Virus record (IMG/VR): IMGVR_UViG_3300028388_001496
Span: 15,317-79,316 of that record
Reading direction: 5' to 3' (one strand)
Length of the DNA: 64,000 bases
Origin: a virus
Positions 6,500-15,055 of the stretch are shown piece by piece; within the stretch, counting starts at the first letter, position 1; each line of letters opens with the position of its first letter. Below the pieces are notes generated by a model. It searched no databases, had not been told where the DNA came from, and saw only the letters and a program-made list of their open reading frames with translations. The translations under genes were made by a program, and so were the position numbers.

Positions 6500-6771
6500 T
6501 GGATATTTTGCTACTTATTTTAGTTCTGCTTATTATCGGCTACCTAGTATATCGAAGGTTTTTTGAAAAAACCAAAGAGATCAATGGAATCGCTATAATT
6601 AACGATCAAGTTGTTTTAAAAATAGGAGGTACAAACAAAGAAAAACTCGAACAGGGTGATTTATTTCTGGGTATGGAGGGTGAATTTTTTGTTGTTGGAG
6701 AGTTAGAATCTAATCCCAAAGCATCAAACAAGTATGCTTATTACATAAGAAACAAAAAGAATACAAAATGA
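6499..6771 (+). CDS. Small membrane-anchored protein
   Basis: N-terminal TM (ILLLILVLLIIGYLVY) followed by RR; LEQGDLFLG domain. Confidence 0.6.
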   Translation: MDILLLILVLLIIGYLVYRRFFEKTKEINGIAIINDQVVLKIGGTNKEKLEQGDLFLGMEGEFFVVGELESNPKASNKYAYYIRNKKNTK

Positions 6772-8804
6772 AAAAGATTTTATTTTTTCTATTAATGCTA
6801 GTTGGATTTTCGCTTTCTGCTCAAGTCCATACTTTAACTGGTATTATATTTAGAAATGGACCTCCTAACGCTAGTACTAGTAATCTTGATGAGTTTTTAT
6901 TAGTACGTCCTACTGGTCAAGTTCGTTCTTTAGATCTTGCCAGTCTTGCTGCTCGTATTAATGCTGAATTGCCTGCTGGTAATTTTACTCAAGAAGAGAT
7001 TGAAGATTTTATTGCTGCAATGATTACAACTGGTACTCAAACTAATATTGTAATTACTTATGATGATGTAAATAGTCAATTAGATTTTGTAGTAAACGCA
7101 CCAGGATTAGATACAGAAGAAGTTGAAGATGTTGTAGGAGGATTGTTAGTAGGAGGAACTGGAGTAACAGCTACTTATAATGATGTTGCTGGTACTCTTA
7201 CAGTTGCTTTGTCAGGTGCTGAATTTACTACTCTTGATGAAACAAAATTAGATGGTATCGAAGCAGCAGCTACAGCAGATCAAACAGGAGCTGAAATTAA
7301 AGTATTATATGAAGCAGAAGCTAACACAAATGCTTATGATGATGCAGCAGTTGCTAAGTTAGCCGGTATAGAAGATAATGCTACAGCAGATCAGACTGCA
7401 AGTGAAGTTCCAATTATAGATGCTGGATTACTTATAACTGCAACAGATGTTGAAGGAGCATTACAAGAATTAGCAAATGCTATTGATATTGCTAATAATG
7501 CTGAAGGAGTTAGTTTAGATACTACTAATTTTGATAACATTTTAAGTCCAACAGAAAATAATGTTCAACTTGCTATTGAGGTATTAGAAAATCAAGTAGA
7601 TCAAGATAATCAGACTGCTGCTGAAGTACCAGTTTCTACAGCTAATTTTAATAATAATTTAGGTCCAGGTGATAGTAATGTTCAAGTAGCTTTTGAAACT
7701 CTTGATGATCTAATTGCAGCAGCCGCAGGATCAGGTTCAATTTTTACTTATACAGAAGAACAATGGTTAGCACTTCCGCAAATCACAAGAGATACAGTTA
7801 ACGCCATTGTTGTTGATGTGGTTGGAAATGCTATTCAAGCAGTGGGAGTATCGTACAATAATACTGAATCAGGTCTTACAGCTACAAACGTACAACACGC
7901 TATTGATGAGGTTGATAGTACGCAAGACAGTGTTGTAACTGAGATAGCAATAAATCCAACTTCTTCATTTGATTTTTATACTCTAACTACAAACGCAAAT
8001 GCTTTTACTCCATATTTTGCAGATAACGCTATTGTGTCGTTAGATTATAACGGAGAAACTTTAACAATACCAAAAGATAGTATTGAGCCGGGAGAGGCTA
8101 TCAGAATTGTTTTAGATAGTAATGCTGGCGGTATTGCAAATATTGTTCCAGCAGACTCAGTTTTATTTTTAGGATTTGCTGACGGTCTTTCTCTTGATTC
8201 ATATCCGTCTGGCGTTACTTTAGTAAGAAGAAACTCTACAACTGTTCCAAATAGACAATATATGGTAACTGACTATTTTGGATCAATAACAGCATTAATT
8301 GGAGCTTATGAAAGTAACAACGAATACACTGAAGCATCTGCGGTAAACGCTGATAATTATACAGCTTCTTTAGGAAGTTGGACAGACGAATCTGGGAATT
8401 TAGATGGGCTTACTTTATCTGGAGATGCTCCTGTTACAAATGGCGGTTCAAGCGGTTCTATAAGGTATCAGCACGTTTCAGGTTCCGATTTTGATGGACC
8501 AACACTGATTTACAGCGATCCAATTAATCCGGGAAATGCAATAGAAACAGGAGTTGATTACAAAATTTCATTCTGGTATAAAAGGGTAACAGGTAGTGCA
8601 ACAGCTGATCTTCAATTGTTTATTAACCAATCACCAAATTATTCCGAAACAGTTACAACCAACACAACGGGGACTTGGACATTTTGGGAATCTTCAGTTT
8701 TTCAATTTAACTCAACAACTCCCAGCATAAGAGTTGCAAACAACTTTGGCGAACCCACTGCCGGAGATTTTTATTTCACAAACTTTACACTTGTTAAACA
8801 ATGA
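6768..8804 (+). CDS. Tail-fibre-like protein with Sec signal peptide and C-terminal CBM-like domain
   Basis: MKKILFFLLMLVGFSLSA/Q; KL[DA]GIExxATADQT x2, EE[IV]ED...TY[DN]D x2, [ND]V[QE]xAxxxL x4 fibre repeats; jelly-roll C-terminus. Confidence 0.7.
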   Translation: MKKILFFLLMLVGFSLSAQVHTLTGIIFRNGPPNASTSNLDEFLLVRPTGQVRSLDLASLAARINAELPAGNFTQEEIEDFIAAMITTGTQTNIVITYDDVNSQLDFVVNAPGLDTEEVEDVVGGLLVGGTGVTATYNDVAGTLTVALSGAEFTTLDETKLDGIEAAATADQTGAEIKVLYEAEANTNAYDDAAVAKLAGIEDNATADQTASEVPIIDAGLLITATDVEGALQELANAIDIANNAEGVSLDTTNFDNILSPTENNVQLAIEVLENQVDQDNQTAAEVPVSTANFNNNLGPGDSNVQVAFETLDDLIAAAAGSGSIFTYTEEQWLALPQITRDTVNAIVVDVVGNAIQAVGVSYNNTESGLTATNVQHAIDEVDSTQDSVVTEIAINPTSSFDFYTLTTNANAFTPYFADNAIVSLDYNGETLTIPKDSIEPGEAIRIVLDSNAGGIANIVPADSVLFLGFADGLSLDSYPSGVTLVRRNSTTVPNRQYMVTDYFGSITALIGAYESNNEYTEASAVNADNYTASLGSWTDESGNLDGLTLSGDAPVTNGGSSGSIRYQHVSGSDFDGPTLIYSDPINPGNAIETGVDYKISFWYKRVTGSATADLQLFINQSPNYSETVTTNTTGTWTFWESSVFQFNSTTPSIRVANNFGEPTAGDFYFTNFTLVKQ

Positions 8805-13161: not shown

Positions 13162-14166
13162 ATGAAAAAATTACTCTACATCATAGCGTTAATTTCCTCC
13201 TTTGCATGGAGCCAAGACCCTGTAGTAGTAGGAATAAAAGCCAATGGGCAATACACACAAGTCCTTCAAGGAGGTATTGGTCAAGCCGTTGCCATAGACC
13301 TGCTAAACCCAATCGACAGCCTTGTAACGGCTGCATCTGATTCTTTGTATTTGGAATATACTCACTATCAAACTGGGCTTAATACTGGGCGAAGAAAAAA
13401 CCTTCGCAAGAACAATGGAAGAATTGATTATTTTCCTACCTCTGAAGCTATTCCTCTGAATACTGTTTGGAGAGGAAGAACCGGGGCATCTAATGATACG
13501 CTTGCCATTAATCCATTCAACAATTACAAACTTGTTTTTGATGGACAGACTACTGGTAATGCAGCTTACATCACAGGGCCATACGAAACAATGTATATTG
13601 AAAAGGTAGCCACTGATACTCTACTTGTGGCCGGGGCTAATTTGGTGGAATATACTTACTCCTCTGTAAATCCTTGGCTCATTGACGGGTTTTCTGGGTC
13701 AATAGGGTCTGAGGCCAACACTTCTTATGCCGTAGAAGCAGCTTCTGGTGTTTACATATCCCTTGTCGGGCCATTAGGTGTGACGGAATCTGTTGCCTCT
13801 GACTCCCCAACTGGAGAAGGGGTATATGCTATGGAGTTAACTTCTGACCCAGGGGGTGATGGAGATGGTGATAGGCAAAGAATATTTATTGAAGGGCTTA
13901 CTATTGGGGAGATATATGAATACGAGGTAAGCTATAAAATGGTCACTGGAGCCGGTGGACGGTTTACAATAGCAAACGGAAACGGAGTTAGTATTGAGGA
14001 CACTAGATTTAGTGGCACCACATGGGTAACAGCAACTGGTGAGTTTACATATACAGAAGGAGCAAATAATAATATCCAATGTGTGTTCTATGCTGCTGAT
14101 GCCCCAAGCGGTTTAGCCGGAGATGTTGCTAGATTTCAATTTGACATAAGACTAAAAAATGATTAG
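13162..14166 (+). CDS. Secreted adaptor + CBM-like protein
   Basis: Signal peptide AWS/Q; GLTIGEIYEYEVSYK...TTWVTATGEF CBM4/9-like pattern. Confidence 0.55.
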   Translation: MKKLLYIIALISSFAWSQDPVVVGIKANGQYTQVLQGGIGQAVAIDLLNPIDSLVTAASDSLYLEYTHYQTGLNTGRRKNLRKNNGRIDYFPTSEAIPLNTVWRGRTGASNDTLAINPFNNYKLVFDGQTTGNAAYITGPYETMYIEKVATDTLLVAGANLVEYTYSSVNPWLIDGFSGSIGSEANTSYAVEAASGVYISLVGPLGVTESVASDSPTGEGVYAMELTSDPGGDGDGDRQRIFIEGLTIGEIYEYEVSYKMVTGAGGRFTIANGNGVSIEDTRFSGTTWVTATGEFTYTEGANNNIQCVFYAADAPSGLAGDVARFQFDIRLKND

Positions 14167-15055
14167 AGCTTTATTGTTTTTATTTCTTTTTCCATCTGTC
14201 ATATTTGGACAGGGGTCTATAATTTGGGATACAGACTTTAACTCAATTCAGTGGTCTGTGGATGGTAGCGGAAGAAATGGTGATCCCCAGCTTTGGGAAA
14301 CCAATGGAGCTACTGCCAACCTTGTCGGAAATGCCAGAGAGGGAACGGGTGCTGTTGAACTTCCGATGGAGTCCGACAACGAAAGAAATGAAATGAATGT
14401 AGATGCACTATTTTTTGATGCGTGGAACGAAGAGTTTTGGATAGGTTTTTCATTTAAAATAGTTGAGCCTTTACCGTCTTCAAGATTGTTTATGCAAATT
14501 AGATGTAAAGCTATTGATCCAGATTCCCCTACTGTAAATCCGATTGGATTTAGGCAAGAGTCGCCTGGAAAATGGTATATTCAAACAGCTACTGATCCAA
14601 ATTATTATGATGTTGCTCCTGTTCCATTTGGTGGAGCCGGGTCATATACTGAAAGCAGCAACTTAATAGACTACGTTCAAGGGGAGTGGAACGATGTGGT
14701 AATTTATTGGAAACCAAACTCTGTTGGAAATTCGTCGGATGGAGATGTAAAAATATGGGTTAATGGCGAGGTAATAGTTGATAAGTCCAACACGACAACT
14801 GTTTATAGAAGGTCGGTAGACGGTGTAATTATTGATGATTTTTTTGCTCCTAAGATTGGCCCGTATGCTGGGACTTTGGATAGGGTTGGCGTGTATCATT
14901 ATGATGCTTATAAGGTTTGGAAGGGAGCTGGAGGTACTTACGAAGATGTAAGTCCGCTTGGTTTAAGTCCGGGAGATGTGGGCGGTGGAGGCACACCTGT
15001 AGCCCCAATACAAGGAAATAAAAAAGCAGTTTACAAAGCATTTTACGATAACTAA
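14159..15055 (+). CDS. Secreted polysaccharide lyase-like (jelly-roll, heparin lyase I-like) protein
   Basis: Signal peptide IFG/Q; AREG..AV, RNE, EFWIGFS, GEWNDVV..W, G.VKIWVNG, PKIGPY, YD motifs. Confidence 0.7.
   Translation: MIRALLFLFLFPSVIFGQGSIIWDTDFNSIQWSVDGSGRNGDPQLWETNGATANLVGNAREGTGAVELPMESDNERNEMNVDALFFDAWNEEFWIGFSFKIVEPLPSSRLFMQIRCKAIDPDSPTVNPIGFRQESPGKWYIQTATDPNYYDVAPVPFGGAGSYTESSNLIDYVQGEWNDVVIYWKPNSVGNSSDGDVKIWVNGEVIVDKSNTTTVYRRSVDGVIIDDFFAPKIGPYAGTLDRVGVYHYDAYKVWKGAGGTYEDVSPLGLSPGDVGGGGTPVAPIQGNKKAVYKAFYDN

Follow-up and report, generated by a model that had tools for sequence, protein, structure and literature searches.

Three predicted polysaccharide-degrading enzymes of unrelated fold, each encoded directly after a fibre-type protein in a phage genome, end in a similar short C-terminal tail. 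The genes lie at 6768-15055 of the window, the 64,000-nucleotide (nt) stretch analysed here, which covers bases 15317-79316 of the 79,316-bp IMG/VR virus record IMGVR_UViG_3300028388_001496 (classed as linear and ~89% complete). All six are on the plus strand, tightly packed and ordered A-B-A-B-A-B, A being the fibre-type proteins tipped with domains like carbohydrate-binding modules (CBMs) and B the enzymes; open reading frames (ORFs) were found exactly where the initial annotation had placed these alternating genes. Comparison with homologues gives good support to the view that the tail is a separable, phage-specific C-terminal module, grafted onto unrelated enzymes and under selection at the peptide level. 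The tail may also be the enzyme's attachment peptide, docking onto the A fibre, a reading to which a probability of about 0.5 is given.

A1, 6768-8804, plus strand: 678-amino-acid (aa) ORF; signal peptide 6768-6821, tail-fibre repeats ~6984-7412, TEEQWLAL 7752-7775, a middle domain and a CBM-like C-domain ~8307-8801.
B1, 8801-10888, plus strand: 695-aa ORF; signal peptide 8801-8848, DUF5123-like region 10112-10396, fn3 domain 10508-10762, Pro/Gly linker and tail PILGISKSNRKRGKGVLLKKKKQ 10817-10885.
A2, 10885-11910, plus strand: 341-aa ORF; signal peptide 10885-10938, TVAQWNAL 11026-11049, A N-domain ~11122-11454, CBM_4_9-like C-domain ~11455-11907.
B2, 11895-13160, plus strand: 421-aa ORF; signal peptide 11895-11948, predicted (alpha/alpha)6 toroid 11952-13076, linker and tail PIQGLPGGKKGLKKKYISIISN 13092-13157.
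A3, 13162-14166, plus strand: 334-aa ORF; signal peptide 13162-13212, A3-type N-domain 13303-13677, CBM-like C-domain 13711-14163.
B3, 14159-15055, plus strand: 298-aa ORF; signal peptide 14159-14209, predicted PL20-like jelly-roll polysaccharide lyase 14210-14974, Gly/Pro linker and tail PIQGNKKAVYKAFYDN 15005-15052.

Neighbouring genes overlap by 4, 4, 16 and 8 nt, with B2 and A3 lying 1 nt apart, and the reading frame differs between every two adjacent A/B genes.

The C-terminal tail and the enzymes that carry it

B1, B2 and B3 each close with a Pro/Gly linker, the motif PI[LQ]G and a basic tail of 16-23 aa, and the tails agree letter for letter with those first quoted from the sequence. 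Only 26-35 aa, linker included, follow the last folded domain. Across the proteome (26,040 residues in 73 ORFs taken as coding, over the whole 79-kb record) PI[LQ]G occurs four times, three of them 16-23 residues from the C-ends of B1, B2 and B3; the chance of finding it in the last 25 residues is ~0.004 per protein, even at an inflated rate. At the third position, each of the four PIQG codons differs between B2 and B3; it is therefore the peptide that is conserved, not the DNA. The fourth occurrence, at aa 23-26 of a lysis-cassette membrane protein (15402-16145, …GLIATPILGYVTAKKVK…), is followed by lysines and may be a coincidence.

The tails are the sole basic segments (isoelectric point, pI, 8.4-10.3) within proteins of pI 4.1-4.6. 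In the AlphaFold2 (AF2) model of B3 the tail is an extension that is not packed on the fold, with a predicted local distance difference test (pLDDT) score of 32-50, and the B2 tail lies outside the toroid. The mature N-termini of all three enzymes run straight into the catalytic domain, with no N-terminal anchor domain.

The initial annotation assigned the B proteins to three unrelated folds; the toroid of B2 and the jelly-roll lyase of B3 stand, and the beta-helix of B1 is likely, with weak support. B3 is predicted to be a PL20-like jelly-roll polysaccharide lyase. It matches Pfam PF14099 (Polysacc_lyase) at 3.7e-13, with 50.3 bits against a cut-off of 29.9, and the best PDB match of its AF2 model (predicted TM-score, pTM, 0.74) in Foldseek is the PL20 glucuronan lyase 2zzj (E 3e-11), and alginate and ulvan lyases come next. 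B2 is modelled as a toroid of the (alpha/alpha)6 six-hairpin glycosidase type and is a predicted enzyme: its Atlas model (pTM 0.85) resembles a GH76-like cluster (TM 0.76 over residues 20-394, the tail unaligned), and its profile matches the six-hairpin glycosidase 6ex6 at 1e-5. The body of B1 is likely a right-handed beta-helix lyase; in Pfam its DUF5123 match reaches 30.7 bits, below the curated cut-off of 35.1, its fn3 domain scores above the cut-off, and its family profile gives a weak match to chondroitinase B (E 0.04). PDB sequence searches with the single B1, B2 and B3 sequences were uninformative.

The proposal that the tail had been grafted onto captured enzymes is borne out by homologues. 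The same linker and tail occur on unrelated proteins, and non-phage relatives do not share the tail: the bacterial B1 homologues P0003-P0005 and the actinobacterial B2 homologues end at the catalytic domain, whereas phage B2 homologues carry tails. The closest B1 homologue, P0002 (35% identity), retains a similar basic tail. All five B3 homologues have a linker and tail behind a near-invariant GGTYEDVSPLGLS, the tail being basic in all but P0019. Tails are kept in homologues that share 32-46% identity and have diverged codons, and ahead of unrelated downstream genes, and the tail is always at the extreme C-terminus, even behind added fn3 or Ig domains. PI[LQ]G itself is not conserved in homologues from other phages.

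Fibre-type partners and the pair in other phages

The A genes were initially described as a beta adaptor-like domain joined to a CBM-like domain. This description fits A2 and A3; A1 has the CBM-like C-domain, and its middle domain is not linked to the other two. The C-ends of the A proteins are predicted to be CBM_4_9-like beta-sandwiches and are putative sugar binders. For A3, the N-domain (pLDDT 75-88 in the AF2 model) finds its best matches among phage capsid-spike and baseplate beta domains (Z 8.2-8.6). Its C-domain, residues 184-334, is CBM4/22-like: CBM4-2 matches at Z 10.0 and a pectate-lyase CBD at Z 9.6, in a part of the model with pLDDT 50-69. When the whole A3 model is compared with viral structures, gp50, a tail fibre of Cellulophaga phage phi12:1, comes first. 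N- and C-domains of A3 homologues are shuffled independently of each other.

A2 combines a viral N-domain and a CBM_4_9-like domain in its ESM Atlas structure rows (CBM_4_9 cluster matches at TM 0.38-0.43). It aligns with phi19:3 gp094 in BLASTP (7e-4), is 34% identical to P0024 over aa 1-320, and is matched weakly (E 0.003, Z=100) by a hidden Markov model (HMM) of the N-domain built without it. A1 matches a PHROG tail fibre family at 3.6e-17 and is 49% identical to phi14:2 g086 over aa 73-206. The A1 C-domain gives a weak Pfam match to CBM_4_9 (19.3 bits, under the 25.9 cut-off) and is 35% identical (E 1e-9) to the C-domain of P0034, a protein that carries an A3-type N-domain.

The motif TxxQWxAL, noted at the outset as common to A1 and A2, is present in both (TEEQWLAL at aa 329-336 and TVAQWNAL at aa 48-55). 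BLASTP among A1, A2 and A3 aligns only the signal peptide, and A2 and A3 are connected through the intermediate P0024. The A N-domain family is defined here, by a profile from Cellulophaga phage and IMG/VR locus L009 proteins or by an A3-type profile; A3 represents a second sub-type, linked through P0024 and the JGI contig L014, and A1 has no match to the N-domain profiles. The mature N-termini of the three A proteins share a loose motif, hydrophobic-x-x-G-Q-[IVY]-x-x-[LV] (within 6768-6900, 10885-11000 and 13162-13260). The A2 leader IATDSIAKFISIGGQIYKV reappears nearly unchanged on different bodies in the metagenomic proteins P0024 and P0032.

The A-to-B order recurs in 10 pairs, three in the window and at least seven from cultured Cellulophaga phages and metagenomic contigs (phi12:1 gp50/51; Ingeline gp33/34; phi19:3 gp089/090 and gp094/095; phi46:3 gp082/083; 420- and 544-aa proteins on L009; a 536-aa protein and P0018 on L014). 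Tail-tagged enzymes lie almost always directly downstream of an A-type fibre gene. B2 homologues from phi12:1 (gp51), Ingeline (gp34), phi19:3 (gp095) and the IMG/VR loci L008 and L009 end in a Pro/Ser/Thr linker and a short tail, and the gene upstream of each encodes an A N-domain with a CBM- or lectin-like end. Applied to sequences outside its training set, the N-domain HMM recognises the A proteins of L014 (5.8e-13) and phi46:3 (2e-75). On L014 the 536-aa A protein, which has a signal peptide, is followed by a B3 homologue with a polybasic tail and then by lysis genes.

Cellulophaga phages carry a tail of their own, and tail sequences differ between host groups. KNQ[KN]LIYWRY ends both the toroid phi12:1 gp51 and the unrelated proteins phi46:3 gp083 and phi19:1 gp104 (= phi19:3 gp090), which are beta-helix-like by sequence motif only and each of which follows an A gene. 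Over their final 57 nt, the genes for phi46:3 gp083 and phi12:1 gp51 share 94.7% identity, and codon differences inside tails are mostly synonymous between phages. The phi12:1 and L009 pairs have no signal peptides and lie inside the structural module. At the locus that holds gp50 and gp51 in phi12:1, its close relative phi18:1 has a single protein, gp52 (L015:3845-5650), in which a collagen-repeat tail fibre is joined in one chain with an SGNH-hydrolase-like domain and a LamG-like end. This fusion lacks an A N-domain, and the gene after it does not encode a separate tagged enzyme. An enzyme fused to the fibre in one phage, or an N-domain and a tail in the other, is what would be expected if the pair substitutes for a covalent link, as far as a single comparison goes.

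Two other accounts of the tail were set aside. An amphipathic anchor was dropped as a leading idea, the helix and strand amphipathic moments of the last 12 residues being above those of shuffled sequences in 0 of 19 tails. An outer-membrane-protein beta-signal fits LIYWRY-COOH but, as a general explanation, misfits the window tails and the proteins without signal peptides.

Exchange is also visible at the 5' ends of A-type genes. The first 113-170 nt (L006:3411-3580, phi19:3 gp089) encode a signal peptide and QTVEGTVGSDGSLIPYNVSGG, and these ends are 88-94% identical in nucleotides across Cellulophaga phage families (phi19:1, phi46:3, phi10:1, Ingeline, Nekkels, phi13:2 and phi18:3); the gene bodies behind them differ, being annotated as fibre, 'tail protein' or 'pectate lyase'. 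This shared N-terminal module may be a virion-side anchor or a recombination handle. Upstream of the L014 pair (L014:2301-4697, on a 530-kb JGI contig) stand six consecutive small ORFs, each of which ends with a hydrophobic helix and then a lysine-rich stretch (e.g. …AIIAVRKMTKKSKA and …AIYKKKMGKKSKKKTA), an array that looks like C-terminally anchored proteins.

Proposed docking, export and competing explanations

On the docking reading, the six genes are a module for host recognition and depolymerisation, built of three fibre/enzyme pairs. The architecture itself is observed: an A protein runs from its signal peptide through a brief conserved leader, in some cases fibre repeats, and a conserved beta A N-domain to a CBM-like tip that varies, and a B protein comprises nothing beyond its signal peptide, catalytic domain, flexible Pro/Gly linker and 16-23-aa basic tail. 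The tail would be the sole attachment element, tethering the enzyme non-covalently and most likely to the N-domain of the A protein whose gene comes immediately before, and captured polysaccharide-degrading enzymes could be swapped without a re-engineered virion anchor. Because the motif is shared among the B tails, any B might fit any A.

By inspection, all six proteins carry Sec signal peptides that obey the Bacteroidetes Q-rule, under which signal peptidase I (SPase I) cleavage exposes an N-terminal glutamine (Bochtler et al. 2018, PMC5837995). Each has a basic n-region, a hydrophobic core of 10-15 residues, a small residue at -1 and Gln at +1, with cleavage sites (6/6) between ...LSA, ...VFS, ...IQA, ...GYS, ...AWS and ...IFG and the following Q. 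No other screened ORF of the 79-kb record combines these features (ORFs of at least 80 aa on the coding strand of the window, and of at least 90 aa in the first 15 kb). Nearly all homologues found also carry a Q-rule signal peptide. Phage genes of Porphyromonas gingivalis with Q-rule signal peptides have no known function and were read as envelope modifiers (Matrishin et al. 2023, PMC10367356). The two sets are alike in placing SPase I signal peptides on Bacteroidota phage genes; here, unlike there, the proteins are fibre proteins and depolymerases by prediction, and their Cellulophaga phage counterparts are annotated as detected in virions by tandem mass spectrometry (MS/MS).

That annotation consists of feature notes in GenBank and RefSeq records. 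RefSeq marks phi19:1 gp101-gp104 with 'experimental MS/MS proteomics analysis'; all four have signal peptides, and the set includes the A-type gp103 and the tail-tagged B-type gp104. The same note stands on phi18:3 gp085-087, which are also signal-peptide proteins.

Since all six proteins of the window are Sec substrates, any fibre-borne cellulosome would form outside the cytoplasm, and pairing would occur in the periplasm, the complexes meeting virions only at or after lysis. Alternatively, free CBM-enzyme complexes might act on capsule or exopolysaccharide (EPS). The most specific version of docking, in which a universal C-terminal 'clip' loads Sec-exported enzymes onto Sec-exported fibre adaptors in the periplasm and the complexes arm the virion only at lysis, is doubtful.

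Several observations weigh against docking onto the fibre. Sec export conflicts with the cytoplasmic assembly of tailed virions, and the MS/MS evidence comes from other phages, in which the proteins could be co-purifying secreted ones. The window tails have no more than PI[LQ]G and basic residues in common, and their likeness to the Cellulophaga tail is confined to position and style. Among the Cellulophaga phages, conservation does not stop with the coding sequence but reaches ~18 nt beyond the stop, into intergenic DNA, which makes a recombination junction an alternative source of the nucleotide identity of the tails; recombination contributes to it. By hhalign, the A1 middle domain has a probability of 0.6% against the A3 family, which amounts to no link. 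The 86-aa phi14:2 g084 has the tail, and no A N-domain is detectable in its neighbour; likewise none is detectable upstream of Maribacter phage Panino CDS0093 and CDS0092 (L003:6226-9095). Synteny, together with shared ancestry or gene transfer among phages of the same host, could yield the pattern of pairs without any binding. The two Panino genes are adjacent, one of them a B2 homologue; both products end in …[PL][IF]FINC without signal peptides, and this ending may be a third 'dialect' of the tail.

A tail that binds its substrate or the envelope is the rival that survives best, although it is unlikely. The basic tail would then hold to polyanions, either the substrate (a capsule or EPS rich in uronate) or the anionic cell envelope, and would retain the exported enzymes there or concentrate them. 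A proteins would be separate exported lectin-like fibres, and the cassette a secreted set of depolymerases released at lysis. Sec signals on all six proteins and the lysis genes next to the cassette agree with such a scheme, and acidic substrates are probable for a PL20/alginate-lyase-like B3 and a chondroitinase-B-like B1. Charge supports it in the window, where the last 16 residues of the tails, the only basic parts of very acidic proteins, carry a net +2 to +8 (P0018, +9), but not in the tails of Cellulophaga phages, Panino and L009, where the charge is just 0 to +2 and a hydrophobic or aromatic end prevails. Amphipathic helix or strand signal, as noted above, does not rise beyond shuffled controls. 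Binding to substrate or envelope also leaves unexplained the strict pairing with A, an identical tail on unrelated enzymes, the signal-peptide-less pairs in the structural modules of phi12:1 and L009 and the virion MS of gp104.

It is improbable that the tail is a foldon-like oligomerisation or folding element, or a propeptide that is cleaved off the C-terminus at PI[LQ]G. A short conserved motif followed by a variable basic stretch does resemble a cleavage site with a disposable propeptide, its place at the extreme C-terminus even after fn3 or Ig domains suits this role, and the end of the B1 tail presumably resembles the foldon hairpin of T4 fibritin. Homologues from other phages nonetheless do not conserve the motif, a protease partner did not come to light, the AF2 structure of the tail is of low confidence, and PL20-like jelly-roll and six-hairpin toroid enzymes are usually monomeric.

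Less probable again is that the tails have no function and are by-products of A-rich gene junctions, which provide the Bacteroidota translation-initiation context, and of recombination linkers by which gene modules pass from phage to phage. The final codons of all six genes are A-rich (KQ, EN, SN, ND, DN) and overlap or abut the next start, conserved DNA in the Cellulophaga phages continues beyond the stop, and the A-gene 5' ends, 88-94% identical across phage families, show that modules are actively exchanged. The A proteins, however, share the junction context ahead of the B genes and yet have no basic extension. Tails also remain in place ahead of unrelated genes, homologues at 32-46% identity still have them although the codons have diverged, synonymous differences predominate, and the enrichment of PI[LQ]G is far above chance.

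True cellulosome ancestry (a dockerin on the enzymes and a cohesin on A) or descent from a C-terminal domain (CTD) of the type IX secretion system (T9SS) is hardly credible at the sequence level: only the functional analogy drawn in the initial annotation speaks for it, and no A/B protein matches dockerin, cohesin or Por_Secre_tail/TIGR04183 even at permissive thresholds. B1-B3 have no Pfam dockerin match at E<=0.1, A1-A3 have no Pfam cohesin match (the A3 N-domain model best matching phage beta domains, with a more distant cohesin-like fold not specifically excluded), and a T9SS CTD (Por_Secre_tail/TIGR04183, or type B TIGR04131) is found neither in the A/B proteins (Pfam E<=0.1, NCBIfam E<=1) nor, for the CTD that the tag might have replaced, in the bacterial B1 homologues. 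A dockerin has ~60-70 aa in two duplicated Ca2+-binding segments and a T9SS CTD ~70-100 aa, for which a tail of merely 16-23 aa is too short.

Genomic setting, known systems and meaning

The record has a G+C content of ~33%, and its terminase is ~33% identical to those of Crassvirales; the phage is crAss-like and marine. Relatives of the cassette genes all come from phages of marine Flavobacteriia (Cellulophaga, Maribacter), which makes a marine flavobacterium the most likely host. Searches of a phage collection by megablast and tblastn with the region, B1, B3, A2 and A3 gave no matches, nor did IMG/VR scans with B1, B2 and B3 as single proteins or IMG/VR and JGI scans with the A3 family alignment.

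The cassette sits amid virion genes, with a small membrane protein directly upstream and a lysis-type cassette downstream.

6499..6771, plus strand: 90-aa protein with an N-terminal transmembrane helix, a hydrophobic N-terminus followed by YRRFF.
15067..17260, plus strand: lysis-type cassette adjoining the fibre/enzyme cassette.
15067-15393, 15402-16145 and 16607-17260, plus strand: membrane proteins of the lysis-type cassette, which includes a match to PHROG 35517.
16117-16548, plus strand: TIGR02594 lysin-like protein (TIGR02594 at 5.9e-32).

Phage phi19:1 gp100 is likewise a small transmembrane protein in a position equivalent to that of the 90-aa protein. The order of exported fibre and enzyme genes followed by membrane proteins and a lysin is also seen in Ingeline, phi19:1, phi19:3, phi18:3, phi46:3 and L014. 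Elsewhere in the window, a single ORF of 4946 aa occupies 32441-47281, and a long fibre-like ORF (20260-23019) is separated from a GTG-start ORF (23655-24776) by 636 nt (23020-23654) without an ORF of at least 100 aa.

Adaptor-mounted receptor-binding proteins are known from several phages, among them E. coli phage G7C (gp66/gp63.1), CBA120 (TSP1-4), K1-5/SP6 with an adaptor and two tailspikes, and Klebsiella phages with multiple depolymerases. The enzymes of the G7C, CBA120 and K1-5 type dock through an N-terminal domain or peptide, all in the cytoplasm. The present cassette is similar in having several depolymerases per phage, in their possible mounting on a fibre or adaptor instead of the tail, and in modular exchange. 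It is unlike them in that the B enzymes have no N-terminal anchor, the candidate anchor being the 16-23-aa C-terminal tail, and in that both partners are Sec-signalled. In T2 gp38 adhesin and the Tfa-type chaperones of Mu and P2, an accessory gene follows the tail-fibre gene, and its product can stay on the fibre tip. The likeness lies in the fibre gene coming first, with its partner immediately after and sometimes retained on the fibre; the B proteins, however, are full-size enzymes of at least three unrelated folds with no match to a Tfa-like family.

By analogy, in cohesin-dockerin systems, too, one kind of tag follows a flexible linker at the C-terminus of unrelated carbohydrate-active enzymes, whose genes accompany those of non-catalytic proteins with CBMs, and the products are located outside the cytoplasm. 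Resemblance in sequence and size is lacking: the tail is too short for duplicated Ca2+-binding segments, and the A N-domain resembles phage structural beta domains.

The closest counterparts are the Cellulophaga phage modules (phi12:1 gp50/51, phi19:1 gp101-104, phi18:3 gp085-087 and Ingeline gp31-34), which share the A N-domain, CBM-like tips, the toroid family, a C-terminal linker and tail, signal peptides in most cases and a position ahead of lysis genes. They differ in the tail itself, KNQKLIYWRY there and PI[LQ]G with a basic stretch here. In the GenBank records of these phages the proteins are annotated only as structural or hypothetical (Holmfeldt et al. 2013; Bartlau et al. 2021, PMC8776804).

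Depolymerases mounted on phage adaptor or fibre proteins, by N-terminal anchors and in the cytoplasm, are thus already known. The searchable literature yielded no description of the A/B pair or of the tag. What appears new, no paper having been found that describes it, is a C-terminal tag of ~20 residues common to unrelated enzymes, a dedicated N-domain in the fibre protein whose gene immediately precedes that of each tagged enzyme, and Q-rule export signals on both partners. The Q-rule signals, together with the virion-detected Cellulophaga counterparts, sharpen the puzzle of how exported proteins come to be part of a tailed virion built in the cytoplasm. Published cultured phage-host pairs exist for such modules, with phi19:1, phi18:3 and phi12:1 growing on Cellulophaga baltica.

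To judge by the predicted enzymes (a PL20-like lyase, a six-hairpin enzyme and a beta-helix lyase), the receptor barrier of marine Flavobacteriia is an acidic capsule or EPS that contains uronate. If the tail docks, phages of flavobacteria would own a plug-in depolymerase system in which ~20 codons give an enzyme its association with the virion or fibre. For engineering, the same tail would be a minimal tag with which enzymes could be mounted on phage fibres, and docking would explain why host-range enzymes are shuffled so freely across phage families.

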